From a virus (lineage: Duplodnaviria > Caudoviricetes), in the IMG/VR virus record IMGVR_UViG_3300012172_000008, positions 1-40,754 of that record: a stretch of DNA of 40,754 bases. One strand, written 5' to 3'. The stretch's first letter is position 1, and each line of letters starts with the position of its first letter. Both the position numbers and the translations under genes were made by a program. A model generated the notes under the pieces. That model ran no database searches. It had not been told where the DNA came from and saw nothing but the letters and a program-made list of their open reading frames with translations. Below, piece by piece: positions 922 through 37,550 of this stretch.

Positions 922-1895
922 CGCTGCACGACGATCTCTTTCCGACCGACGTCAGCTACGGCAGCGTCGGCGGCCCGGGCTTCTACACCAACCTGATCAC
1001 GACCGACAGCGGCGTGGACGAGGCGGTGGCGCGCTGGTCGCGGCCGCGGCGCAGCTACGACGTCAGCTACGGGATCAAGAACTACACCCAGCTGCAGACG
1101 GTGCGCAACCACTACAACGCGCGCCTGGGCTGCCAGAACACGTTCCCGTACAAGGACCCGCTCGACTTCTCGACGAACACCGCGGCGACCCCGAAGCACT
1201 ACACCAACAGCGCCGCCGTGCCCCCGAGCAACGCCGACGCGCTGCTCGGCGTGGGCGATGGGACGACGACGACCTTCCAGCTGCGCAAGCCCTACGCCAG
1301 CGGCAGCCAGACGGTCTACGCGCCGATCGCCATCGTGAAGACCGGGACCACGGTCGTCTCACTCGACCTGGTCAACCAGGCCAGCGGCTGGTCGGTCAAC
1401 CTGCTCACCGGGCTGATCACCTTCACGAGCCCGCCCGGCGCCGGCGTGGTCGTCCGGGCCGGCTGCGAGTTCTACATCAAGCTGCGCTACGGCAAGGACG
1501 TCGATCGCGTGCTGCCGCTGCGCTGCGACGACTTCTCGACCGGCTCGCTGCCGAGCATCCCGCTGATCGAGGACATCGACGGGAGCACCATCGACGAGGA
1601 CCGCCTGCCGATGGGCGGAGGCCGCAAGGCCTTCAGCGCGAGCATCAGCATCGCGCAGTCGGAGGGCGTGTCCTGGGAGCTCGTGCCGGCCTCGTCCGGG
1701 CTCACGGTGACCGTGGAGGCCGCGGCCGACATGCCGAGCGGCGGGCCGCACTACGCCCTCTACAACGCCGGCGCCGACTCGCTGACGCTCAAGGGCAGCG
1801 CGACGACCATCGGCACGCTCGCCGCGGGCGCCTACGTGCGCCTCGACATCTGGAAGGTCGGCGGCAGCAAGACCTGGAAGGGGATGTACGTGTGA
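918..1895 (+). CDS. GTA-like distal tail protein (DUF2460/TIGR02217 family) with extra C-terminal beta domain
   Basis: FPTDVSYGSVGGPGFYT...DSG...ARWSRPRRSYDV, FPYKDPLDF, GDGTTTTFQL, GLITFTSPP motifs; TTG start overlaps the TMP stop. Confidence 0.88.
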   Translation: MTLHDDLFPTDVSYGSVGGPGFYTNLITTDSGVDEAVARWSRPRRSYDVSYGIKNYTQLQTVRNHYNARLGCQNTFPYKDPLDFSTNTAATPKHYTNSAAVPPSNADALLGVGDGTTTTFQLRKPYASGSQTVYAPIAIVKTGTTVVSLDLVNQASGWSVNLLTGLITFTSPPGAGVVVRAGCEFYIKLRYGKDVDRVLPLRCDDFSTGSLPSIPLIEDIDGSTIDEDRLPMGGGRKAFSASISIAQSEGVSWELVPASSGLTVTVEAAADMPSGGPHYALYNAGADSLTLKGSATTIGTLAAGAYVRLDIWKVGGSKTWKGMYV

Positions 1896-2212
1896 TCACC
1901 AAGGAGCGCTTCTTCGGCGGCACGTACAACAACGAGGCCTTCTCGGGCAACATCAACGTGCACCCGCTGGCCGGCAAGACCTGGCGCCTGGCGGGCACGA
2001 GCACGCCGTCGGTCACGCTGCCCGACGCGCGCACGCTGCGGCCCGATGAGATCGCCGCCATCTGGAACAGCGGCGCGGCGACGATCGCGGTCAAGGACAA
2101 CGCGGGCGGGACCATCGGCACGATCCTCGCCGGGGCGGTCGCGCTGCTCTACCTCTTCGACACCTCGACCCAGGCCGGCGGCTGGCGCCTGCTCGCGCGG
2201 AGCTTCCTCTGA
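1892..2212 (+). CDS. Small tail-tip protein (106 aa), paralogue of the DUF2460 C-terminal extension
   Basis: GTG start in GTGA overlap; MITKERFFGG...; the longer 785-2212 ORF is an upstream shadow extension. Confidence 0.75.
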   Translation: MITKERFFGGTYNNEAFSGNINVHPLAGKTWRLAGTSTPSVTLPDARTLRPDEIAAIWNSGAATIAVKDNAGGTIGTILAGAVALLYLFDTSTQAGGWRLLARSFL

Positions 2213-3213
2213 TGCCCATGCCGGTTGTGTGGTGCGACGGCTTCGACTCGACGGACTCCACGCACGAGTCGACGTGGTACACGGCGGCAGACTTCAACGT
2301 CGGCACGCCTGGGCGCCTCGGCGTCGGGCAGTACGCCACGGTCGGGACCTCGGCCTTCAAGACGATCCCGGGCGGACCGTACACGTACATGGGTGCTGCG
2401 CGCGCCGTTCGCTGGGGCACGATTGCAGGAGAACCGATCCTGTTCGAGTTCGGTGGCACCTTTCAGCATTGCCGCATGCTGCGCAACGCGTCCGGCTTCG
2501 TCTTCATGAAGGACGCCAACAACGCCACCATCCAGACCTACCTCGGTGCTGCCCTGCAGGCGAGCATCTGGTATCACGTCGCCTTCTACGCCAAGTGGGA
2601 CGGCGCCGGCAACGGCCAGCTGCGCGGCTTCCTGAATGGCAACCTCGTGCTGTCGATGGACGGCGTCGACACACACAGCGCCGCGCCGAACGAGTTCTCG
2701 TACTTCCTTATTGGCGGCGGTGACGTCGATGACCTGTATGTCCAGGCCGCCGACTCGATCGTCGGCAACCTCGAGGACCAGTTCAAAGGCGATCGGATCG
2801 TGCGCGACCACTTCCCGCAGAGCGACGGCGACCACCAGCAGTGGGCGCAGAGCACGGGCGGCACGAAGTTCGGTGTGGTCGATGAAGTCGGCCCGAATGA
2901 CGACACGGACTACCTGTCCGACGCCACGCCAGGCAACCGGGTGTGCTTCGGTGTGGGCTCGCTGGCCCCGGAAATCTCGTCGATCGATGCCGTGCAGCTC
3001 ATGTCGGTCGGCCGCTTCGACACGACCGGCCCGCACGCGATCAAGAACTACGTGCGCGAGGTCGGCGTCGCCAACCACGACCAGGCCAACCAGGCGCTCA
3101 CGGTCACCCATGCCGGCTACCACGACGTGCTCGAGGTGGACCCTGTGACCGGCAGCGGGTGGAGCAAGCCGGGCTTCGAGGCGCGCCAGTACGGCGTGAA
3201 GGACGAGAGCTGA
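2212..3213 (+). CDS. Tail-associated protein with LamG/concanavalin-A-like beta-sandwich (candidate receptor binding)
   Basis: CDGFD N-terminus, WYHVAFYAKWDG...GFLNGNLVL...DDLYV pattern; tail-tip context. Confidence 0.6.
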   Translation: MPMPVVWCDGFDSTDSTHESTWYTAADFNVGTPGRLGVGQYATVGTSAFKTIPGGPYTYMGAARAVRWGTIAGEPILFEFGGTFQHCRMLRNASGFVFMKDANNATIQTYLGAALQASIWYHVAFYAKWDGAGNGQLRGFLNGNLVLSMDGVDTHSAAPNEFSYFLIGGGDVDDLYVQAADSIVGNLEDQFKGDRIVRDHFPQSDGDHQQWAQSTGGTKFGVVDEVGPNDDTDYLSDATPGNRVCFGVGSLAPEISSIDAVQLMSVGRFDTTGPHAIKNYVREVGVANHDQANQALTVTHAGYHDVLEVDPVTGSGWSKPGFEARQYGVKDES

Positions 3214-19260: not shown

Positions 19261-19556
19261 AGACGACCGAGAAGTTGAAGCTGTCGATGCCCGACTTCAT
19301 CGGGTGGTGGCATGACGCACAGAAAGATCCGCCACCCTACGGCGAGCTGGTCCTGACTTACGACCCAGGCGACCCCTACGAGATCTGTCTCGCTCGGCGT
19401 GATCGCACGGACTGGGAGGGGGAGTGGTTCGAGTACTGGCATCCCAACGACGCTGGCCAGTTCGAGGACCAGCTGGCGCGCTTCTGGATGCAGCTGCCGC
19501 CGGCGCCGTCACCGTCGCGCAAGAAGAAAGCTCCGAAGCGGAGGGCCAAGGGATGA
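19244..19556 (+). repeat. 17-bp direct repeat GGAGGGCCAAGGGATGA bracketing the DUF551-like gene
   Basis: Exact copies at 19244-19260 and 19540-19556, each carrying RBS+ATGA. Confidence 0.88.
19257..19556 (+). CDS. DUF551-like phage protein
   Basis: WHDAQKDPPPYGELVL...FWMQLPPAP pattern. Confidence 0.65.
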   Translation: MKTTEKLKLSMPDFIGWWHDAQKDPPPYGELVLTYDPGDPYEICLARRDRTDWEGEWFEYWHPNDAGQFEDQLARFWMQLPPAPSPSRKKKAPKRRAKG

Positions 19557-21199
19557 GCATCACGCTGACGTGGAAGCCCGACGACGGGGCCAAGATCACG
19601 GTCGCGACGCCGGGGACGGGTTTCTACAAGGGCGGCCCCGGCCAGCCGGACGTGTTCGCGAGCTTCGAGGCGCAGCGCGGCGAGCTCGTGATCAGCAATG
19701 GCTGGTCGGACGCCGACAACCCGAAGCTGGGCGCGCCGGTCTCAGGCACGCTGCGCGTGTTCGGGGCCGAGCCGAAGCTGGCCGAGCCGCGGCACGTGAC
19801 GATCCAGTTCGGCTGCGCGGAGGTGATCCGCATGGGCGAGCCCTGCGCCTACAGCCCGCCGCGCGAGTGGAGCAACTGGCACACCCGCAACATGCCCGAC
19901 GACCCGGCTGCCGTCGCGCACGTCATGGAGCGGCTGGCGGAGACCGACTTCTTCTTCGACGACACGCCCTACGCCAACCCCGAGCAGAGCAAGACGAGCG
20001 AGGGGCGGGTCTGCCAGGCGCTGTGGGCCGGCAGCCTCGCGGCCGCGCTGGGGATCGAGCAGGACCGCGTGCGCGACGCGGCGCAGGCCTTCGTGGACTT
20101 CCAGCTGCGCTGGCGGCACTACTTCTTCTACGACACCGCCGGCAAGCAGCTCACGGCCGCCGGCAACCCGTGGTGGCGCGTGGGGCCCTCCGGCTGGGAC
20201 GGCCAGGTCAAGCTCGACCTGACCGACGAAAGCAACCCGTACCTGTTCGAGGCCGTGCTGCAGCACCTGGCGTTCGACCGGCTGTTCGAGCTGGCGATCG
20301 GCTTCAACAGCTTCAGCGGGCGGCTGTGCACCGAGGCATACATCGAGGCCGTGCTGACACGGCCCGAGTTCAGGAGCGGCACGCTGGCGCAGCAGCAGCG
20401 CACGCACGGCTACTGCGCCGAGCTGTCGGCGCGGATCATCCTGGCGGGGATGCAGAACGCCGAGCGCGAGGCGGCGATGCAGCGCATGGTCGGCGGTTGG
20501 CGCGAGGCGAACGGCACGAGCGCCGCGCTGTTCCCCTACCCATCGATCTCGCCGCCCAAGACCGGCAAGTGGCCGCACGGCTACCCGAGCCTCGTGGACT
20601 GGGAGGTCTACAGCAAGCACTGGAAGCTGTTCCTGCCGCCGGGAACGATGCCGCCGCTCCCCGGCGAAACGTGCGACCACCTGATCCCGTGGCTCGAGCA
20701 GCAGGCCCTCGGTCGCGGGCTGGCGAAGACCGCCTTCACGTTCGGCCCGGACGGGCTGTGGCAGGGCAGCGCGATCGTGTGGCAGACGGCGATCGCGCTC
20801 GGCGGGCTGTGCGACCTGCGCGACGTGGGCGCGCCCATCGAGGACATCGACAATCTGATCGCGCACGCGGCGCGCTGCATCGTGGGACCCGGCGCCGTGT
20901 CGGGCGGGATCGGTGCGACGGGGACGCCGATCACGCCGAACCCGGTCTACAACAGCTACATCGCGCGCTTCCCGAGCCGGGTGACGCCGGGCCCGGGCAA
21001 GAACAGCACCACGCGATTCATCTGCGAGCGGCTGCTGCGGGCCGAGCAGTCGTTCCCGGAGTCGAACCTGGCGGAGCTGTGCCGGCAGCTGGCGAAGGTG
21101 ATCTGGACGGCGACGGACTACCCGAGCGCGGACGCGCCGATCAACCTCGAGACGATGGGCGTGCTGCCCATCAAGGTGTTCGGGGTCAAGGCGACGTGA
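19553..21199 (+). CDS. Large hypothetical protein (548 aa), Trp/Tyr-rich
   Basis: ATGA-coupled start MSITLTWKPDD; strong GC3 codon bias; no recognised family. Confidence 0.8.
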   Translation: MSITLTWKPDDGAKITVATPGTGFYKGGPGQPDVFASFEAQRGELVISNGWSDADNPKLGAPVSGTLRVFGAEPKLAEPRHVTIQFGCAEVIRMGEPCAYSPPREWSNWHTRNMPDDPAAVAHVMERLAETDFFFDDTPYANPEQSKTSEGRVCQALWAGSLAAALGIEQDRVRDAAQAFVDFQLRWRHYFFYDTAGKQLTAAGNPWWRVGPSGWDGQVKLDLTDESNPYLFEAVLQHLAFDRLFELAIGFNSFSGRLCTEAYIEAVLTRPEFRSGTLAQQQRTHGYCAELSARIILAGMQNAEREAAMQRMVGGWREANGTSAALFPYPSISPPKTGKWPHGYPSLVDWEVYSKHWKLFLPPGTMPPLPGETCDHLIPWLEQQALGRGLAKTAFTFGPDGLWQGSAIVWQTAIALGGLCDLRDVGAPIEDIDNLIAHAARCIVGPGAVSGGIGATGTPITPNPVYNSYIARFPSRVTPGPGKNSTTRFICERLLRAEQSFPESNLAELCRQLAKVIWTATDYPSADAPINLETMGVLPIKVFGVKAT

Positions 21200-24396: not shown

Positions 24397-24885
24397 GTGG
24401 AGACGCGCGTGGCAGGCGACGAGCCGAGGCCGTTCCTGTTCAGGGTCCAGAGCACCTTCGTCCCGGCAGGCCTCGTCGTCTCCGCGCTGATCCTGGGCTT
24501 CACGGGTCGCTCGATCCTGCAGAGCGAGCGCGACGCGACCAAGGCCTCGATCGAGGCCGTGACCACGAGCACGGCCGCGGCGCTCAAGGAGTGGCAGCTG
24601 CAGCAGGACGCGCGCGAGCGGCAGTACCGCGAGCAGCAGGACAAGCAGAACCTAGACTTCCAGTCGAGCGTGCTGCTGCAGATCAGCCAGATGCGCGGCG
24701 AGCAGTCGGCTGTGCAGGCCTCGGTCTCGCGCGTCGAGCAGACGCTGGCCGTGCTCACCGCCACGCAGTCGCAGCTCGCGTTCACCGCCGACCTGCGGCT
24801 GTGGGCCGCCGACATCGCGCGCGAGAACCCGACGATGAAGATCCCGCCCTTCGTGCCCACCGCCCAGTCGAACGAGAAGAGGTGA
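24397..24885 (+). CDS. Single-TM coiled-coil membrane protein (candidate lysis protein)
   Basis: TM segment FVPAGLVVSALILGFTG followed by a Gln-rich coiled coil. Confidence 0.7.
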   Translation: METRVAGDEPRPFLFRVQSTFVPAGLVVSALILGFTGRSILQSERDATKASIEAVTTSTAAALKEWQLQQDARERQYREQQDKQNLDFQSSVLLQISQMRGEQSAVQASVSRVEQTLAVLTATQSQLAFTADLRLWAADIARENPTMKIPPFVPTAQSNEKR

Positions 24886-24888
24886 CCC

Positions 24889-25191
24889 ATGGCCGACTTC
24901 CCCGCACAGCCCGCCGCACTGAACTTCCGCGACAAGCCCACGTTCGGCTCCTCGGCCGCGGTCAACACGACCGGCCTGCAGATCCTCGCCGCCGATCCGC
25001 TGCGGCGTATGGGGACCTGGATCCGCAACACCGGCGGCACCAACGCCCTGCTCGTCGGCGACGCTTCGGGCACGGCGGTCTACAGCCAAGCGGCCTCGGC
25101 CGCTGCGCCTCCGGTGTTCATCCCGGGCACGGGCGCGATCTTCGTCAAGGCCGCGGCCTCAACCACGGACGTCTGCTGGATGGCCTACTGA
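24889..25191 (+). CDS. Small beta-rich protein (100 aa), possible virion decoration
   Basis: ILAADPLRRMGTWIRNTGGTNALLVG...GAIFVKA; GAGG RBS. Confidence 0.7.
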   Translation: MADFPAQPAALNFRDKPTFGSSAAVNTTGLQILAADPLRRMGTWIRNTGGTNALLVGDASGTAVYSQAASAAAPPVFIPGTGAIFVKAAASTTDVCWMAY

Positions 25192-25216
25192 GTTCTCGTT
25201 CCGGAAGGAGTTCGTC

Positions 25217-25729
25217 ATGCCCATGTCGAAGCCGCAGAAGCTGTTCACGCTCATCGTGGTGACAGTGGCGCTCGCGCTCGGCGCGGGTGCCTTGCTCGCG
25301 GGCTGCACGCCCGAGGAGGCCGACGCGACGCGCCAGGAGTGGCAGCAGCGCACCGTCGCTGCGATGCAGGAGGCGGGCGTCGATCCTGCCGAGGCGAGCA
25401 CCGACGAGTGGAAGGAGTACGGGGGCGCGACGCTCACCGCGATGCTGGCCGAGGGCAAGGAGGTCCCGGCCGAGCCCGCACAGGACTGGCTCGACTTCGG
25501 GCTCAACGCCCTGATGAGCTTCCTCGGGGTGAAGGGCTCGATCCTCGGCGCGCAGGCCGTGGCCGCGATCATCCGCGGCCGACGCACGCGCGGCACCGAG
25601 AACCTCGGCACCTTGGTCAATCCCGAGACGAGCTGGCCGGACACGCTCAAGGCGCTGGCCGCGCTGACGCTTGACACGCACTCGCCGGCGGCGGCTGCGC
25701 CCGCACCTGGGCCCGGGCCCACCCCGTGA
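25217..25729 (+). CDS. Lipoprotein with C-terminal hydrophobic helix (u-spanin-like architecture)
   Basis: AAGGAG RBS; lipobox LLAG-C30; hydrophobic LDFGLNALMSFLGVKGSILGAQAVAAII followed by RGRR. Confidence 0.75.
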   Translation: MPMSKPQKLFTLIVVTVALALGAGALLAGCTPEEADATRQEWQQRTVAAMQEAGVDPAEASTDEWKEYGGATLTAMLAEGKEVPAEPAQDWLDFGLNALMSFLGVKGSILGAQAVAAIIRGRRTRGTENLGTLVNPETSWPDTLKALAALTLDTHSPAAAAPAPGPGPTP

Positions 25730-25866
25730 ACGCCACCAGCCTGCTCGTCTTCGTCGCGGGCCTGGCCACCGGCATCGGCATCTGCCGCTGGCCGGACAAG
25801 GCCGGCGTCGCGCTGTGCGGTGTGATCGCCGTCATCGCGCTCGTGGTGGCCGGCCTGCTGCCGTGA
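25726..25866 (+). CDS. Two-TM peptide (46 aa), holin-like
   Basis: GTGA overlap; MNATSLLVFVAGLATGIGICRWPDKAGVALCGVIAVIALVVAGLLP; not in the ORF track. Confidence 0.55.
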   Translation: MNATSLLVFVAGLATGIGICRWPDKAGVALCGVIAVIALVVAGLLP

Positions 25867-26064: not shown

Positions 26065-27888
26065 ATGGCCAAGGTCAAGCGCCCGCCGCCAACGCCCACC
26101 GAGACCAACGCGTGGGTGGGCAAGGAGTCCGCCGTCTACCGGCGGATGGCCGAGCGCACCAAGCTGATCGACGCGCTCATGGGTGGCACCGAGGGGATGC
26201 AGAAGGCCGGCGAGGTCTACCTGCCGAAGGAACCGGGCGAGGAGAGGCCCGCCTACGACACGCGCCTCAGGCGCAGCACGTGCCACGGCTTCCTGCGCTC
26301 GACGGTGCGGCGGCTCTCGGCCCGGCCCTTCGGCAAGCCGGTCACGATCCGCATCGGCCGCGACCTGGGGACGCTGCCCGAGCTGCTCGCGCCCATCGAG
26401 AGCGACGCCGACTACAGCGACTCCAGCCTGACGCAGTTCGGCCGCCGGCTCATGGCCGACGCGCTGCAGCGCGGCCTGGTGCACTTCCTGGTCGACATGC
26501 CGGGAGACGTGCGCGAGCTGTCCACCAAGGACGAGCGCGAGGGGCGCGTGCACCCCTACTTCGTGCACGTCTCGGCCAAGGACCTCATCGGCTGGAAGGC
26601 GCAGCGCGGCAAGGGCAACCGCCTCGAGCTGACGCAGATCCGGATCCGCGAGTGCCACGTCGTCGAGGTCGACGGCGAGGAGACCGAGGTCGAGCACGTG
26701 CGCGTGTGGGACGCGCCCAGCGAGGCAGCCGAGGGCGTCGACGCCGTGCCCGGCACCTGGCAGCTGTACCGCAAGAACAAGGACGCCGACGGATACGCGC
26801 TCGTCGAGAGCGGTCCGCACACCTTCCCTGGCATCCCGCTCGTCACGGTCTACTTCAACCGCACGGGCTTCATGGAGGCCGAGCCGCCGCTCGCCGACCT
26901 GGCCGAGCTCGAGCGGGCGCACTGGGCCAGCCGCAGCGACCAGACGAACATCCTGCGCTACGCGCGCGTGCCCAAGATGGCCATGGCCGGCGTGAGCGAC
27001 GAGGAGAGCCGCAAGCCATCGCTGCTCGGCGTGCAGGCGGTGTGGAAGCTCAAGGACCCGAACAGCAAGGCCTGGTGGGTCGAGATCCAGGGCAACGCGG
27101 TCTCAGCCGGCCGCCAGGACATCCTCGACCTGCAGGCCGAGATGAACGTGCGCGCCCTGCAGCCGCTCATGGAGCGCACCGGCGACGAGACCGCGACGGG
27201 CCAGGAGATCTCGGACAAGAACACGACCAGCGACCTCAAGGCCTGGGTGCGCGCCATCGAGGCGGGGTTCCTGCAGGGCTTCGGGTTCGCCGCCCTGTTC
27301 GCGCGCACGAAGCTGCCCGAGAAGTTCGGCGTCGACGTGTTCGACGACTGGGCGCCGCCCTCGCTCACGCTCGACCAGGTGCGTCTGCTCAAGGAGATCC
27401 GGCAGGCGGGCGAGCTCTCGCGCACCACCTTCCTGTCGCTGCTGAAGGGGCTGATCCTGCCCGAGGACCTCGACGTCGCCAAGGAGGCGGACGCGATCGA
27501 GGACGAGGGGCCGTCGCTGGCCGAGTTCGGCGCGCCGTCGATGGAGGTCGACGTCGAGACCGGCGAGCCGACCGAGCCCGCTGCCGCCGAGGCGGGCGCT
27601 GCGGCCGAGGAGGGTGGGCAAGTGAAGCCACGCGTTCCGGCCACCGGCAACCTGGCCGACACGGCGCTCACCGGTGCGCAGGTGCAGTCGGCGCTCAGCA
27701 TCGTGCAGGAGGTCGGGGCCGGGAAGCTGCCGCGCGACTCGGGCGTGTCGATGCTCGTCGGCTTCTTCAACCTCGACCCGACGGAGGCCGAGGCCATCAT
27801 GGGCTCGGTCGGCAAGGGCTTCACGCCGAAGGCCGACCAGGCGCCCGCGGAGCCGACGCCAGGTGACGACGACGAGCGACCGGTGTGA
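26065..27888 (+). CDS. Portal protein (DUF4055 family) with acidic linker and C-terminal extension
   Basis: LMGGTEGMQKAGEVYLPK...YDTRL, LVDMP, GIPLV, PPLADLA...HW.S.SD..NIL..ARVP, ETAT. Confidence 0.9.
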   Translation: MAKVKRPPPTPTETNAWVGKESAVYRRMAERTKLIDALMGGTEGMQKAGEVYLPKEPGEERPAYDTRLRRSTCHGFLRSTVRRLSARPFGKPVTIRIGRDLGTLPELLAPIESDADYSDSSLTQFGRRLMADALQRGLVHFLVDMPGDVRELSTKDEREGRVHPYFVHVSAKDLIGWKAQRGKGNRLELTQIRIRECHVVEVDGEETEVEHVRVWDAPSEAAEGVDAVPGTWQLYRKNKDADGYALVESGPHTFPGIPLVTVYFNRTGFMEAEPPLADLAELERAHWASRSDQTNILRYARVPKMAMAGVSDEESRKPSLLGVQAVWKLKDPNSKAWWVEIQGNAVSAGRQDILDLQAEMNVRALQPLMERTGDETATGQEISDKNTTSDLKAWVRAIEAGFLQGFGFAALFARTKLPEKFGVDVFDDWAPPSLTLDQVRLLKEIRQAGELSRTTFLSLLKGLILPEDLDVAKEADAIEDEGPSLAEFGAPSMEVDVETGEPTEPAAAEAGAAAEEGGQVKPRVPATGNLADTALTGAQVQSALSIVQEVGAGKLPRDSGVSMLVGFFNLDPTEAEAIMGSVGKGFTPKADQAPAEPTPGDDDERPV

Positions 27889-28421
27889 ACGCGCAGTCTG
27901 CAGCGCTGTTCGACGCCCACCTCGAGCTGCCGCGCGCGGTCGTCTTCAAGCGCTTCGCCCGGATCCGCGGCGTCGGCTGCGATCCCGATGACCTCGAGGC
28001 CGTGGGCCTGGTCGCGCTGTGGAAGGCTGCACAGGAGTTCGACGGGCGCGGTCGCTTCAGCGGCTTCGCGTGGCGCTCCATCGAGTACGCGATCCTCGAC
28101 CGGCTGCGCGACGGACGCGTCATCCGCAGAAAGCGCGACCGGACCAAGCCCTGCCCCAAGCAGATCCCGGCGAGTGTGCTGGCCTCGCGTGGGGATATGG
28201 TTCCGTTCGATCCGCCCGTCCCCGACGAGACGGTCGAGCAGCGCGAGCGTGCCGCGGTGCTGCATGCCGCCATCGAGCGGCTGCCGGCCTACCTGCGCGT
28301 GACCGTGCACGCGCGCCTGGCGGGCCGGTTGATCACCGGGCGCTACCGTCGGCTCAACGCCGCCCTGCGGGTGCTGAGCACCGACGCGCGCCTGATGCAG
28401 GTCGCCGGTGGCTGTAGGTAA
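27885..28421 (+). CDS. Sigma-70-family (FliA/WhiG-like) protein; region 2 intact, region 4 shortened
   Basis: DDLEAVGLVALWKAAQEFD...FSGFAWRSIEYAILDRLR; LHAAIERLP start of region 4. Confidence 0.75.
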   Translation: MNAQSAALFDAHLELPRAVVFKRFARIRGVGCDPDDLEAVGLVALWKAAQEFDGRGRFSGFAWRSIEYAILDRLRDGRVIRRKRDRTKPCPKQIPASVLASRGDMVPFDPPVPDETVEQRERAAVLHAAIERLPAYLRVTVHARLAGRLITGRYRRLNAALRVLSTDARLMQVAGGCR

Positions 28422-28437
28422 CACGCCGCGAGGCCGC

Positions 28438-28647
28438 ATGAAGCACCCCGCGCCCAAGCTGCCGCCCTTCCCGCTGGAGTGGACCTGCGACGTCTGCCAG
28501 ATGAAGGGCCTGACCGTGCAGCGCATCGACGACCACCAGGCGGTGGCGTGCCCGCTGTGCGAGCGGATCTTCTGCGCGCAGTGCAGCAGCCGGCACTTCA
28601 TCGGCGGGCAGCTGTGCCGGCGCCCGGCCGGCGGCAAGGCGGCCTGA
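28438..28647 (+). CDS. Small zinc-finger protein (69 aa)
   Basis: CDVC...CPLC....CAQC...H......C; GAGG RBS. Confidence 0.65.
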   Translation: MKHPAPKLPPFPLEWTCDVCQMKGLTVQRIDDHQAVACPLCERIFCAQCSSRHFIGGQLCRRPAGGKAA

Positions 28648-32361: not shown

Positions 32362-32877
32362 GTGGTGCACGTGGTCGAGACCGGCGCGGGGCTGAGCGAC
32401 GCGAACGCGTACCTGTCACTCGCGGACGCGGTGCTCTACTTCGCCGACCACGCGAACGCGGCGTGGACGGGCACGGACCCCGCGAAGGAGCTGGCGCTGC
32501 GCCAGGCCACGCAGTACCTCGACGCGTACTACCACCCGTTCTGGAAGGGCGACAAGAAGCTCTCGACGCAGGCGCTCGACTGGCCGCGCGCCGGCGTGTG
32601 CGACGAGAACCACTACCCCATTGCCAGCGACAGCCTGCCGACCAAGCTCAAGGAGGCGTGCGCCGAGATGGCGGTGCGCGCGCTCACTGAGTCGCTGCTG
32701 CCCGACGTCGCGCCGGCCAGCTCGGGCGCGCTGATCTCGAAGTCGGTGGAGGTGGGCCCAATCAGCGTCAGCAAGACCTGGTCGGGCTCGGGCCAGAGCA
32801 CGACCAAGTACTACCGGATCGCGGACCTGCTGCTCGCCGACCTGGTGCTCGACTCCAACGCGCTGATCCGAGCCTGA
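32362..32877 (+). CDS. Head-tail adaptor, DnaT-like (DnaT_2) family
   Basis: VETGAGLSDANAYLSLADA, ALRQATQYLD, QALDWPR, LKEACAEMA, VGPISV. Confidence 0.85.
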   Translation: MVHVVETGAGLSDANAYLSLADAVLYFADHANAAWTGTDPAKELALRQATQYLDAYYHPFWKGDKKLSTQALDWPRAGVCDENHYPIASDSLPTKLKEACAEMAVRALTESLLPDVAPASSGALISKSVEVGPISVSKTWSGSGQSTTKYYRIADLLLADLVLDSNALIRA

Positions 32878-32880
32878 GCG

Positions 32881-33249
32881 ATGCCCACCGAACTCGACCT
32901 CGAGCTGCTGCCGGAGGCGCTGGACGTGATCGCGACCTACGGGCGCGACGCCGCGTTCACGAGCGCGCCGACGGGCTACTCGCCGACCACCGGCGCCGCG
33001 ACCGCGGGCACGTCGCTGGGCACGGTGAAGGTCTCGCCGCCGGCCGTCGACCGCAAGCTCATGGACGAGGACCTGATCCAGCAGGGTGACACCGCCGTGC
33101 TCGTGGCGGCCTCGGGCCTGGCCTTCACGCCGGCGGTGAACCAGACGCTGACGATCAGCGGCCAGGTGTGGGGCGTGGTGGCCGTGACCGAGTTCCACAG
33201 CGGCGAGCAGATCTGCGCCTGGGGCCTGCACCTGAGGCGCGGCGGATGA
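32881..33249 (+). CDS. Head-closure/stopper protein
   Basis: IATYG...YSPTTG...LIQQGD...W.V......W.LHLR; neck position. Confidence 0.75.
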   Translation: MPTELDLELLPEALDVIATYGRDAAFTSAPTGYSPTTGAATAGTSLGTVKVSPPAVDRKLMDEDLIQQGDTAVLVAASGLAFTPAVNQTLTISGQVWGVVAVTEFHSGEQICAWGLHLRRGG

Positions 33250-34550
33250 GCTGCCCCCGCCACGTCGTGCTCGTGGTCCTCGACGACGTCGGGGTCGACA
33301 AGGTCGGCTGCTACGGGCACCCGACGGCCGGCCCGACGCCGACGCTCGACGGCCTGGCCAGCGGCGGCATCCGCTTCAGCCGCGCCTACGTGAACCCCAG
33401 CTGCGCGCCCACGCGCTGCGCGTTCCTCACCGGGCTCTACGGCAGCCGCACCGGCATCGACACGGGCGTGCCCACCTACGAGCCCGACACCAACCCCAAC
33501 GGCGACTTCCTGCCGGCCGACGAGCTGCCCTGGCTGCCGCGGCTGCTGTCCGAGCAGATCGTGCACTGCGACCTGGTGGGGAAGTGGCACCTCACGCACA
33601 TCGCGGCGCCCGACTACCACCGAGACCCGATCGCCAAGGGCTACAGCAACTGGCGCGGGCACCTGAGCAACATCCTCTCCGCGCAGGGTGAGGGGCCCTA
33701 CAGCTGGAGGAAGCAGTACGCCGACGGCGCCGGCTGGACCGAGGCGACGCAGACGGTCTTCTGCACGGTCGACAACTGCTACGACGCGAGCCAGGCGCTG
33801 GCCGCCTCGATCAGCCGGCCGTCGTTCCTGTGCCTGAGCTTCAACGCGCCGCACCCGCCCTGGGACCAGCTGCCGCCCGCGGGCAGCTACACGCCGGTCG
33901 GCGGGCTGCAGACGCAGCCCAAGAAGCAGCAGTACGCGCTGCAGGCCGTCGACACCTACCTCGGCCAGCTCATGGCCTACTACGCCGCCCAGCACCCCGC
34001 GGCGGCCGCCGAGACGCTGTGGCTCGTGCTGGGCGACAACGGGACCCCGGCGGCGGCCATCGAGCCGCCCACGGCCGCGCACCAGCACAAGGCCACGCCC
34101 TACGAGGGCGGCGTGCACGTGCCGCTGATCGCCTGGGGCGCCGGCGTCGACCAGCCCGGCCGCGTCGACTCGCGGCTGATCCATGCCGTGGACCTGCACA
34201 CCACGCTGCTCGAGCTGTTCGGCGCGCCGGCCGTGGCCGGCACCGACGGCCTGAGCTTCCTGGCGGCGCTGGGCAACCCGGCCGCGCCGGCCGCGCGGAT
34301 CTCGGCCTACTGCCGCCACGCCCAGCCCAACGGCTTTGGAGCGAAGGACTGGGTCGAGGAGTGCGCGGTCGAGGCGCGCTGGAAGCTCGTGCGCAAGACC
34401 ACGGGCGCCACCGTCGTGCTGCAGCTGTTCGACCTGGTGGCCGACCCGGCCGAGCTGACCAACCTGTACCCGGGCAGCACGCAGGAGCAGGCCGACGCGA
34501 TCGCGGCGCTCACGGCGGTGCTCAACGCCGGCACGGCGGGCCCGCCGTGA
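33246..34550 (+). CDS. Formylglycine-dependent (S1) sulfatase, 434 aa, no signal peptide
   Basis: HVVLVVLDD, TPTLDGLA..GIRF..AY, C53-A-P-T-R..LTG, GKWHL, FNAPH, GDNG, KATPYEGGVHVPLI, QLFDLVADPAE. Confidence 0.92.
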   Translation: MSCPRHVVLVVLDDVGVDKVGCYGHPTAGPTPTLDGLASGGIRFSRAYVNPSCAPTRCAFLTGLYGSRTGIDTGVPTYEPDTNPNGDFLPADELPWLPRLLSEQIVHCDLVGKWHLTHIAAPDYHRDPIAKGYSNWRGHLSNILSAQGEGPYSWRKQYADGAGWTEATQTVFCTVDNCYDASQALAASISRPSFLCLSFNAPHPPWDQLPPAGSYTPVGGLQTQPKKQQYALQAVDTYLGQLMAYYAAQHPAAAAETLWLVLGDNGTPAAAIEPPTAAHQHKATPYEGGVHVPLIAWGAGVDQPGRVDSRLIHAVDLHTTLLELFGAPAVAGTDGLSFLAALGNPAAPAARISAYCRHAQPNGFGAKDWVEECAVEARWKLVRKTTGATVVLQLFDLVADPAELTNLYPGSTQEQADAIAALTAVLNAGTAGPP

Positions 34551-35107
34551 ACGGCAACTTCGACGAGTTCAACCGCCAGCTCGAGGGCCTCATCGAGAAG
34601 CAGCTGCCCGAGCGCGCACTGAAGTTCCAGCTCAAGGTCGCGGGCGACGCGATCGACGGCGTGATAAAGCGCACGCCGGTCCTCGACGGGCTGCTGCGCT
34701 TCAACTGGCAGGCCTCGGTCTACGGGCCCATCGACACGGTGCGCGACGGCAGCGATGCCGAGGGCGAGGGCCAGGCGACGAGGGCCGAGGCGAAGGCAAC
34801 GCTCAAGGCGCAGCTGCACCCCTACGGCACCGCCTATCTGAGCAACCCGACGCCATACGCGTCCGTGATCGAGGACGGCGGCTACCCCAGCCCGGTCAAG
34901 CGCGGCACGCGCATCCGCAACGCGCGCCGCCGGCAGCGGCGCCGCGGGCTGCTCGATCGCAGCGCCGAGGCGCGCGAGGCCTTCCTGCTGGCGGGCGAGA
35001 CCGCCGACTACGAGATCCGCAGCGCGGGCGGCTTCAGCAAGCGGGCGCCGCAGGGCATGGTCGGCGTGACCGTGCTCGAGCTCCAGGATTACTTCGAGAG
35101 GGACTGA
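34547..35107 (+). CDS. Tail completion/neck protein (HK97 gp10-like, 186 aa)
   Basis: RTPVLDGLLRFNWQAS, YLSNPTPYASVIE.G, SKRAPQGMV; GTGA overlap. Confidence 0.8.
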   Translation: MNGNFDEFNRQLEGLIEKQLPERALKFQLKVAGDAIDGVIKRTPVLDGLLRFNWQASVYGPIDTVRDGSDAEGEGQATRAEAKATLKAQLHPYGTAYLSNPTPYASVIEDGGYPSPVKRGTRIRNARRRQRRRGLLDRSAEAREAFLLAGETADYEIRSAGGFSKRAPQGMVGVTVLELQDYFERD

Positions 35108-35110
35108 GCG

Positions 35111-35809
35111 ATGTCGATGTCGAACTCCGCCGAGACCAACCTGGGCAAGCTGCTGCTGCAGAACGTGACGTGGGCCAACGTCGGCGACGCGACGGGCCTG
35201 GTCGGCAGCGCCGTCGCGGGCAGCTGGTACTGCGGCCTGGCCACGGCCTTCCCCGGCGAGGGCGGCACGCAGGCGACCAGCCAGGCGGCCTACACCGGCT
35301 ACGCGCGCGTCGCCGTGGCGCGCTCGACCGGCGGCTGGGCGATGGCCAACAACATCGGCGACAACGTGGGCGCGATCACGTTCCCGGTCTGCACCGGCGC
35401 GCCCGAGACCGAGTTCTGGTGGACGCTGGGCCGCGACTCGGGCACCGGCGCCGGCGAGCTCTTCGCCTTCGGCCCGCTGATCCAGTCGGGCGCCGACTAC
35501 TTCGTGTTCGTCGCGGCGACCTCGGACACGCTCACCGTGCCGGGCAACCCCTTCGCGGTGAACGACGAGATCTGCTTCCTCGCGATGGCTGGCGGCTCGG
35601 CGCTGCCGACCGGGATCACCGAGGGCACGCGGTACTTCGTCAAGACGAGCTCGGGCAACGACATCACGATCTCGACCACGCAGGGCGGCTCGACGCTCGA
35701 CATCACCGCGGCGGGCGCCGGGTTCTGCATCAAGATGACCCACCTGGCGGTGGACGTGAACATCACGCCGTCGTTCGCGGCCGGGGTGCTCGACCTCGTG
35801 TTCGCCTGA
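35111..35809 (+). CDS. Virion structural protein (neck/fibre-type)
   Basis: SNSAETNL..LL..., YTGYARVAVAR, ITFP, ITPSFAAGVL; internal LPTGITEGTRYFV beta-domain insert. Confidence 0.72.
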   Translation: MSMSNSAETNLGKLLLQNVTWANVGDATGLVGSAVAGSWYCGLATAFPGEGGTQATSQAAYTGYARVAVARSTGGWAMANNIGDNVGAITFPVCTGAPETEFWWTLGRDSGTGAGELFAFGPLIQSGADYFVFVAATSDTLTVPGNPFAVNDEICFLAMAGGSALPTGITEGTRYFVKTSSGNDITISTTQGGSTLDITAAGAGFCIKMTHLAVDVNITPSFAAGVLDLVFA

Positions 35810-37167
35810 TGGGACTGTGGATCTGCAAAGCGGCGGACTCGGACATCCTCCCGTCGGGCAACGTCCTGGTGTCCAAGAATCTCGCGCTCGACACCGAGAC
35901 GCCGTCCAACGTCAATATCACGGTCCCCGGCAGCTCGACGCGCAACATGCGCTTCCGCACGGTGCTGAACGTGCCGAACGACCCGGCCATGTGGGCCTCG
36001 GGCAACGCGACCGCCACGGTCAACGTCGTGACCGGCTTCTCGAATGTGCGCGTGGCCTGCACGCCGCACCGCGAAGACTCGGCCGGCAACAACGTCGAGC
36101 AGCTCGCCACCACGGCTGAGCAGACGCCGGTGTCGGGCAATGTCCTGACCTTCACGTGGACGCCCCTCACGTGGGCCGTCTCCGCCGTCGCCCAGACCGA
36201 TCGCCTGCGGCTGCACATCGCCTGGCGCACGACGAACGCGACGGCCCGTACCTGCACGATCCAGGTCGGTGACGCCAACGCGTCCTTCGATCTCCCCGTG
36301 GCCTGGCTGGGCGAGCTGCGCGGCCGGGCGATGATCAGCCTGGCGGGCCTCGGGCAGCTCGGCGGCGCCGGCGGTCTGGTGGGGCGCTCGCTGCTCAGCG
36401 TGTCGGGTCGCGGCGGGCCGCTCGCGGGCGCCGGCGCGGCGCGCGGGCGCGCCCTGATCGGCATCGCAGGGCGCGCGGCGGCGGGTGGCAGTGGAGCGCT
36501 GCGCGGGCGCGCCATCGCGTCGCTCGCGGGTCGCGGCGTCGCCGGTGGGACAGGCGTGCTGAACGGCCGAGCGGTCGTGTCCGCGGCGGCGCGCGGCGGC
36601 CCTCCGGCGGGGGCCGGGGCGCTGGCCGGACGCGGCCTGGTGGGCGCCAGCGGCCGCGCCACGCCCTCCGGCGCCGGCGCCCTGGCCGGCCGGGCGCTGC
36701 TGCAGCTGCTCCCGCGTGGCGTGCTGGCCGACCTGCAGGCCGCCGTTGGCGGGTGCGTCGAGACGATCCTCGCTGCGGTCCGGAGCCGCTACGCGACGCT
36801 CGTGGAGGGCGCGCACGCCGTCCCCACGCTGCACGACAACGAGGGCGAGGCCATGCCGGACAGCTCGGCCTGGGTGCGCTTCTCGCTCGAGCTCGACCGC
36901 TCATTCCAGATGGACTTCGGCGGCGCCGAGCAGAGCCGCCGGCTGCTCGGCCAGGCCACCGCGGCGATCTACCTGCCCTTCGGGACGGGCGACGGCGAGG
37001 CCTGGGAGCTGGCCGACATCATCAACGACGCCTTCCGCGGCCAGGCCGCCGACGGCGTGATCTACAGCCCGCCGCCCTACCCGATCCGGCGCGGGCTCGT
37101 GGACGACCGCTGGGTGCTCGAGGTCGTCGTGCCCTTCTACGCGCAGTGCGCGGAGCCGGTCGCATGA
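35809..37167 (+). CDS. Fusion: beta-sandwich domain + Gly/Ala/Arg repeat stalk + tail-terminator-like (DUF4128-like) domain (452 aa)
   Basis: TGATG overlap; C-terminal HDNE....SAWVRFS...G.....IYLPFGTG..E...LAD.I..AF...W...V.VPFY. Confidence 0.72.
   Translation: MGLWICKAADSDILPSGNVLVSKNLALDTETPSNVNITVPGSSTRNMRFRTVLNVPNDPAMWASGNATATVNVVTGFSNVRVACTPHREDSAGNNVEQLATTAEQTPVSGNVLTFTWTPLTWAVSAVAQTDRLRLHIAWRTTNATARTCTIQVGDANASFDLPVAWLGELRGRAMISLAGLGQLGGAGGLVGRSLLSVSGRGGPLAGAGAARGRALIGIAGRAAAGGSGALRGRAIASLAGRGVAGGTGVLNGRAVVSAAARGGPPAGAGALAGRGLVGASGRATPSGAGALAGRALLQLLPRGVLADLQAAVGGCVETILAAVRSRYATLVEGAHAVPTLHDNEGEAMPDSSAWVRFSLELDRSFQMDFGGAEQSRRLLGQATAAIYLPFGTGDGEAWELADIINDAFRGQAADGVIYSPPPYPIRRGLVDDRWVLEVVVPFYAQCAEPVA
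36310..36735 (+). repeat. Seven 20-21 aa repeats GxLxGRAxxSxxGRGxxxGx
   Basis: GELRGRAMISLAG, GGLVGRSLLSVSG, GAARGRALIGIAG, GALRGRAIASLAG, GVLNGRAVVSAAA, GALAGRGLVGASG, GALAGRALLQL. Confidence 0.75.
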
Positions 37168-37550
37168 CGAGCTGGACCGAGATGGCCGCCGCCGTGCGCA
37201 CCCGGATGAGCACGGCGCTGCCCTCGGTGGCGGTGCAGTACGACAACCACGCCCTGACGCCGCCCGACGTCGCGCCCTGGGTGCGCTGGACGCTGCAGCC
37301 GGCCGGCGTGCGCCAGCCCGAGTTCGGCACCTACCGCACCGACGGCCGCGCCGTGGCGTCGATCTTCACGCCGATGGCGATGGGTGTGCAGGCTGGCCTG
37401 GCGCTGGCCGACACGATCAGCGCGGCCTTCCGGCTCGTCGCGGCGTCCGGGGTGACCTGGCGCTCGCCGGCGGTGCGCACGATCGGCCGCGCGGGGAAAT
37501 GGTGGCAACTAAACGTCGAGTGCCCGTTCTACACTGAGGACCAAGCCTAG
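37164..37550 (+). CDS. Tail terminator (DUF4128-like, 128 aa)
   Basis: VQYDN....PPD..PWVRWT...G....SIFTP...G......LADTI..AF...WWQLNVECPF; directly before the tube gene. Confidence 0.78.
   Translation: MTSWTEMAAAVRTRMSTALPSVAVQYDNHALTPPDVAPWVRWTLQPAGVRQPEFGTYRTDGRAVASIFTPMAMGVQAGLALADTISAAFRLVAASGVTWRSPAVRTIGRAGKWWQLNVECPFYTEDQA

Follow-up and report, generated by a model that had tools for sequence, protein, structure and literature searches.

An S1 sulfatase gene between the neck genes of a temperate siphophage: a possible particle-borne enzyme

The phage record and its neck block

The window, by which we mean the whole stretch of DNA analysed, covers an entire virus record, 40,754 bases long, about 71% GC and flanked by direct terminal repeats of 123 bp. 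By PHROG and Pfam scans the phage is a temperate siphophage, and an integrase, RecE/RecT, terminase, portal, P22-type capsid, Type 1 neck, tube, tape measure and a tail tip of the DUF2460/BR0599 type were recognised in it. It was present in freshwater-sediment and groundwater sequencing runs, and no RNA run was listed among them. Among the record genes scanned no endolysin was recognised, and the 548-aa protein of 19553-21199 had no Pfam, PHROG or NCBIfam match. Between terminase and portal (24397-25866) there are membrane-type genes that have, by eye, the look of a spanin/holin cassette; one of them carries a lipobox-like LAGC and another encodes a two-helix protein of 46 aa. Two genes at 27885-28647, one for a sigma-70 region-2 protein and one for a small protein rich in Cys, separate the portal gene from the head-morphogenesis genes; in the close relative L003 a different sigma-type gene occupies this slot.

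The canonical order of a Type 1 neck, in the available text of PMC4362835, is Ad1-Hc1-Ne1-Tc1. The sulfatase gene lies within this block (Table 1), in the late operon, as the preliminary description had stated. Its upstream neighbour is the head-closure gene named there; the downstream one, previously called a tail-completion gene, is Ne1, and the terminator proper is the gene at 37164-37550. Two further inserts follow Ne1. The product of 35809-37167 has 452 aa, with an N-terminal domain without assigned family, a Gly/Ala-rich linker and a C-terminal tail-terminator domain. This second terminator domain stands just before the ordinary terminator, a possible route for display on the neck.

Table 1. 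Coordinates of the neck-block, sulfatase and tail-tip features in the window
Feature	Position	Strand	Basis
Stand-alone tail-tip domain, gp10/TSP4-type attachment fold	1892..2212	+	after DUF2460 distal-tail gene
Head-tail adaptor Ad1	32362..32877	+	phrog_477, E 1e-43
Head closure Hc1	32881..33249	+	phrog_161, E 5e-10; stop overlaps sulfatase ATG
S1 formylglycine-type sulfatase, 434 aa, without signal peptide or extra domain	33246..34550	+	motifs, Pfam, AlphaFold model
Formylglycine motif C53-A-P-T-R57	33402..33416	+	C, P and R invariant in alignment A2
Neck protein Ne1	34547..35107	+	phrog_169, E 2e-22; GTG overlaps sulfatase stop
Second neck-block insert, Gp80-like, fibre-type protein; candidate carrier	35111..35809	+	PF23140, E 5e-7; weak tail-fibre PHROGs
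Third insert, candidate display platform	35809..37167	+	phrog_179 at residues 318-448, E 1e-13
Tail terminator Tt1	37164..37550	+	phrog_179, E 3e-19; PF13554

The sulfatase and the borders of its gene

The S1 sulfatase gene is intact and its family assignment is clear, as first described. The product carries D13 D14, C53-A-P-T-R57, G112-K-W-H115, A-P-H203, G-D264-N265-G and K282-x3-YEGG, and 11/11 catalytic positions are kept. Pfam gave Sulfatase at E 1.5e-35 and SGSH_C at E 5e-8. The AlphaFold model (pLDDT 95.8) shows the alkaline-phosphatase-type alpha/beta fold and C-terminal sheet of S1 sulfatases, and its predicted fold matches solved members at TM 0.70-0.80 and 17-25% identity. The lysine of GKWH is K113, which we take to belong to the catalytic set. 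D13, D14, C53, H115, H203, D264, N265 and K282 correspond in the alignment to the Ca ligands, the formylglycine and conserved positions of PyuS (7stt), as these are named in the available text of PMC8746622: the Ca ligands D13, D14, D264 and N265 are PyuS D15, D16, D276 and N277, and H115, H203 and K282 match PyuS H113, H195 and K293. In the same text (C/S)xPxR is the motif for formylglycine formation in S1 sulfatases. The best solved matches belong to S1_16, S1_19 and others at 20-25% identity; because identity to solved enzymes is below 30%, neither substrate nor S1 subfamily can be transferred. The NCBIfam models for PehA, choline sulfatase and PRK13759 arylsulfatase stayed below cut-off (41.5/900, 51.5/433 and 88/481 bits).

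By hydropathy there is no signal peptide, in agreement with the first reading, and a signal overlooked upstream of the ATG was ruled out, the 56 in-frame residues there not being hydrophobic. Pfam, the AlphaFold model and structure comparison detected no anchor or attachment domain in the chain; residues 5-429 are entirely sulfatase fold. Neither FGE (PF03781) nor anSME (TIGR03942) had a match in the record, which bears out the claim that a host maturase is needed. PF03781 was found in 4/4 candidate host-class genomes, and Cys-x4-Cys, presumably the FGE core motif, was present in 2/3 of the top hits.

The gene is coupled to both neighbours within the morphogenesis operon by 4-base overlaps, ATGA with the Hc1 stop and GTGA with the Ne1 start. 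Its codon score is 0.41 per codon, against 0.34-0.53 in 16 core genes, and its GC3 is 0.99, so the genome-typical codon usage noticed earlier was recovered. A classical moron has its own promoter and terminator and an atypical base composition. Here, both neighbours are overlapped, GC3 is high, and neither a promoter-like (sigma-70-like) site nor an upstream terminator was found in a promoter scan of limited power at 71% GC. The same kind of 4-base overlap joins the sigma-factor insert at 27885 to the portal gene.

Contigs from four runs span both borders, namely X1 (possibly the source), X2 and the diverged variants X5 and X6; the right border is also spanned in X3. Among the runs with border contigs, none joined Hc1 to Ne1 without the sulfatase gene. 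The relatives L003 and L021 carry the sulfatase at the same place with 93-94% identity, while the neighbouring genes range from 45% to 98%. These bridging contigs and same-place copies rule out a chimeric assembly at the borders, which had been raised against the first reading.

Insertion, origin and selection

An arrangement without the sulfatase was found in L157, a 4.3 kb contig from a genome in the class of a Planctomycetota MAG. It reads Ad1-Hc1-Ne1-Tt1-tube, lacks a homolog of 35111-35809, and its Ad1 and Hc1 share 42% and 39% identity with those of the record; there, Hc1 overlaps Ne1 by ATGA. On sequence comparison L157 is an empty insertion site, the sulfatase having entered exactly at the Hc1/Ne1 junction, with coupling retained at both its ends. 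For the best 80 of at least 364 confirmed Ad1 relatives, we surveyed a fetched flank of up to 5 kb on each side. A sulfatase was present in 1/80, the contig of the close relative L003, and the Hc1-to-Ne1 gap was shorter than 250 bases in 51/64 of these loci with Hc1 before Ne1. A core Type 1 neck component is present throughout related necks, and the sulfatase is not. It is a lineage-specific insertion, an accessory gene that would not be needed for building the neck. The positional conservation expected of a neck gene thus stands among close relatives (L003, L021 and the border contigs) and fails in the other 79 of these best 80 loci. Together with the likewise coupled sigma factor, this leaves a virion role without support from neck position or coupling in itself.

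The neck block accepts candidate display cargo, because the inserts of the record are accompanied elsewhere by terminator fusions in L171 (at least 1407 aa, two terminator stretches) and L174 (290 aa), and by an inserted lectin/Ig protein in the L238 neck. Single-protein viral scans with Ad1 and with the tube matched only close relatives.

In the tree, the phage sulfatase falls in a clade with strong support (100/99), together with some 24 proteins that are 45-76% identical to it. The closest, P0002 (76%), also lacks a leader. Named members come from Planctomycetota MAGs and are described as 'arylsulfatase A/B-like' (the P0011 cluster, P0015 and the P0020 cluster, 45-62% identity). A hydrophobic leader is present in 17/24 members, 16 by hydropathy plus P0018; among those without it, four look truncated or mis-started, and P0001, P0002 and P0006 begin at the first strand. 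Clade copies lie among chromosomal genes in L027-L030 and L036, and two other phage types hold copies that retain the signal peptide and lie outside the neck. In L024 the copy is flanked by a repressor-type gene and terminase; in L022/L023/L026 it precedes a homolog of the 19553 protein and nucleotide-metabolism genes, and in L023 and L026 some 900 bases separate this homolog (37%) from the sulfatase upstream of it. A grouping of the phage copies as one clade against the chromosomal copies was rejected (AU p 3e-5, the group having been named after seeing the tree), so at least two moves of the gene have occurred. The sulfatase likely came from a Planctomycetota host; since it has moved repeatedly, the host is one that we infer. 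Clade members of at least 46% identity were not found in 42 candidate-class genomes (best 41%) or in a GTDB scan (best 37%). Six homologs of the TPR gene from the chromosomal TPR-sulfatase-MetRS site were examined with 1.5 kb of flank, and none had the sulfatase or MetRS gene beside it.

This mobility bears on the possibility that the enzyme is metabolic or lysogen-benefit cargo, which would free sulfate from esters for sulfur supply or for the lysogen, its neck position being incidental. The phage has an integrase and lives in freshwater, the clade is mobile, with members on chromosomes and, at varying positions, in at least three phage types, and chromosomal copies neighbour a CysZ/EI24 gene (L027) or Cys/Met genes (L030). 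Loss of the leader, however, removes access to periplasmic substrates, each candidate host-class genome already has its own members of the sulfatase family (6-8 or 2), and such a role fits the signal-bearing homologs better than the record copy. A silent prophage would not express the sulfatase, whose gene overlaps both neighbours and for which the scan revealed neither a promoter-like site nor a terminator upstream. For the record copy we judge the cargo explanation unlikely.

The dN/dS of the sulfatase was 0.51 against L003 (p 0.007) and 0.45 against L021 (p 0.002), below neutral; none of the 31 differences to L003 falls at a catalytic position. Values for Ad1, Hc1, tube and Dit were 0.15-0.26, and for capsid, scaffold and Ne1 0.47-0.73. 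In two clade proteins, P0016 and P0017, the reading frame is complete and C53, K113 and K282 are lost; these proteins are possible binders of sulfated sugars. P0017 sits on a 108 kb contig. Such proteins, and a dN/dS of about 0.5, would suit a recently inserted passenger under weak selection or a gene of changed function, that is, binding of sulfated or phosphorylated sugars or phosphoesterase activity; PyuS, the top match by sequence in the PDB, cleaves aryl phosphates as well, according to the available text of PMC8746622. Against this are the full codon adaptation, the preservation of the motifs in every neck copy and in P0002 (76%), a dN/dS significantly below 1, and the PehA score of 41.5 bits where the cut-off is 900. 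It is the least likely reading, and we consider it very improbable.

Sulfatases among other virion genes and the proposed role

Two pattern-limited viral scans returned at least 25 distinct sulfatase contigs, and context was read for 22 (L006, L008 and L015 were excluded as apparent repeats of others). Of these loci, 7 are fused, 5 stand-alone and signal-less, 3 leader-bearing among virion genes, and 7 elsewhere or unclear. The fusions (7/22) are to baseplate or tail-tip proteins, with the 11 catalytic residues kept in all. They lie between distal-tail and hub genes in L016/L017 and in the myophage baseplate block in L009/L011/L138, where the scanned block of L009 has a gp5-like gene before and gp25 and wedge genes after; in L010/L018 the sulfatase is preceded by a domain that has a paralog in the next gene. 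The proteins of L009 (5166-10349), L011, L138, L010 and L018 are low-GC myophage baseplate proteins of 1,050-1,750 aa with an intact sulfatase at the end; two different fusion partners occur inside one sulfatase clade. Stand-alone signal-less copies in packaging or morphogenesis blocks are those of L003, of L007, L013 and L137 (just before terminase genes), and of L122, 32% identical and three genes before a phrog_477 Ad1 and a phrog_161 Hc1. The leader-bearing copies among virion genes are in L004, L120 and, on the opposite strand, L005. A single origin of the record copy and the fused and other signal-less copies was rejected (AU p 0.0004, with groups named after seeing the tree), and because of this the placement of sulfatases among virion genes is recurrent. 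By Pfam, no virion domain was present in the long proteins P0148-P0150 and nine others, which hold sulfatase repeats or cellular domains. A tblastn search of 50,697 cultured-phage-set records with the sulfatase gave 3 weak matches (24-29%), all unannotated metagenomic entries.

Two of these loci show further features. The signal-bearing sulfatase of L005 (3875-6229), between tube and chaperone genes, is a moron-like contrast case; its phage shares tube and terminator families with the record. The genes after the sulfatase in L120 (8222-11797) and L122 (1538-3091), from unrelated phages, have in common an N-terminal region of 310 residues (31%, E 2e-13) without Pfam or PHROG match, possibly a carrier protein.

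The fusion partner in L016/L017 is homologous to the product of 1892-2212 over its full length and occupies the same gene slot (28% over 106 aa, pairwise E 1e-8). The four-sequence model of this product had a pLDDT of 70.5 and matched a capsid spike, a tailspike, a baseplate protein and CBA120 TSP4 79-179 with modest Z scores of 8.1-8.7; Foldseek gave TM 0.53-0.57. Modest as these scores are, the matches are all phage attachment parts. No tblastn match to 1892-2212 was obtained among the 50,697 cultured-phage-set records and, in a weak search, no longer fusions among 2,059 candidates; a viral scan with A3 returned just two close relatives and the two known fusions. Coupled to 1892-2212 is the gene of a 333-aa protein (2212-3213) with weak lectin/LamG and polysaccharide-lyase matches, in the slot held by the sulfatase domain in L016/L017.

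Taking these observations together, we propose tentatively that the sulfatase is made late, matured by the host and carried on the particle, where it would desulfate a host surface glycan; this is possible and somewhat short of probable. The enzyme would be made late in the cytoplasm with the neck proteins, and the host formylglycine-generating enzyme would activate it by conversion of Cys53. It may then ride non-covalently on the particle, attached to one of the two neighbouring fibre-like inserts or to the tail-tip domain 1892-2212, and strip sulfate from the host sugar coat, its presumed substrate. Sulfate removal would lower the charge of the coat or unmask a receptor. Display seems to gain indirect support from other phages, in which enzymes of this family are fused to virion proteins. 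The virion role first suggested for this enzyme retains, then, the indirect backing of those fusions and of the signal-less L122 copy near Ad1-Hc1; the missing anchor domain and the signal-bearing nearest phage homologs outside the neck speak against it.

The observations that oppose carriage on the particle are several. The 434 aa include no anchor or linker, and gp84 of phi24B and the fused sulfatases all have one; 79/80 of the best Ad1 loci lack a sulfatase within the fetched flank; among phage homologs whose context is known, the closest retain a signal peptide and are found elsewhere; 4-base coupling also occurs in the head block for a sigma factor, which is not a virion protein; the sulfatase dN/dS is above that of Ad1, Hc1, tube and Dit; and P0016/P0017 lost C53, K113 and K282. 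Sulfated coats are also less established in freshwater sediment and groundwater than in the sea, which counts in the same direction.

The lack of an anchor would suit a soluble late enzyme that stays cytoplasmic, is freed at lysis and desulfates capsule or biofilm matrix for escape or spread of the progeny, never being part of the particle. The signal-less copies before terminase genes in L007, L013 and L137 would fit late timing without a fixed virion site, the signal-bearing late-block copies of L004 and L120 suggest action at the envelope or outside, and the lysis genes of phage M6, between capsid and Ad1, indicate that non-virion late genes occur at this boundary. The tail-tip and baseplate fusions, on the other side, show that phages do display this family, and a free enzyme would be quickly diluted after lysis. 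We regard release at lysis as rather improbable. Returning to the particle-borne enzyme, a wider proposition is that phages whose hosts are rich in sulfatases have, time and again, taken up formylglycine sulfatases as enzymes that are carried on the particle and edit the coat. There would be two routes: fusion to baseplate or tail-tip anchors in some phages and, in this one, non-covalent docking on neck or tail of a stand-alone enzyme that lost its signal peptide. This we regard as doubtful, a conjecture more than a conclusion.

If the enzyme is on the particle, it would bring new chemistry to phage entry, tie infectivity to a host post-translational modification and mean that an uncultured Planctomycetota lineage has sulfated glycans on its surface. 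Were it a docked stand-alone enzyme, infectivity would depend on a catalytic residue made by the maturase of the previous host. Sulfatases called auxiliary metabolic genes in viromes may likewise be structural or surface-acting. As a single soluble domain of 434 residues, the enzyme of this phage is the easiest of the phage sulfatases to co-express with FGE and to assay.

Comparison with known systems

The nearest solved enzymes are S1 sulfatases (PF00884), PyuS (7stt, E 1e-24) and PsS1_19B (6psm/6prm, TM 0.78-0.80, 21-22% identity). The phage enzyme has in common with them CxPxR, the D-D/D-N metal ligands, the Lys/His set, the two-domain fold and the need for FGE or anSME; unlike them, it is phage-encoded, inside a morphogenesis operon and without signal peptide. 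In the secreted Planctomycetota clade most members have a leader, and the known contexts are chromosomal or elsewhere in other phages. PHROG phrog_19870, of unknown function, also matches the phage sulfatase, and the giant-virus sulfatases in BFVD are of the same superfamily at 11-16% identity to it.

Known virion enzymes cut or deacetylate glycans, and we found no report of one that desulfates them. A full-text search found no virion sulfatase in the literature, where supplements (AMG tables) and subscription papers may list phage sulfatases. The available portions of PMC11986028, PMC12724379, PMC13477221, PMC6359870, PMC10232697 and PMC9853417 contained no phage sulfatase protein, and that of PMC10232697 lists phage FGE-type genes. 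DNTV-1 has two sulfatase-superfamily genes, ORF68 and ORF120, listed as auxiliary with no substrate given and no virion role stated in the available text (bioRxiv 10.1101/2025.02.15.638363).

The closest functional parallels are enzymes displayed on virions. In the tailspikes of CBA120 (PDB 7rej), we assume the role to be that of a virion-associated depolymerase. The NanS-like esterase gp84 of phi24B was first read as lysogen cargo and is a capsid decoration, according to the accessible part of bioRxiv 10.64898/2026.04.10.717836. As in these cases, to the extent that their sources describe them, the phage sulfatase is a host-type glycan-modifying enzyme among late genes with a proposed action on surface or matrix glycans. 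It differs from both in its predicted sulfate-ester hydrolysis, in a catalytic residue made by the host and in having no anchor domain. As a virion-associated or late glycan-modifying enzyme it is real and rare, and less conclusive than the fused cases.
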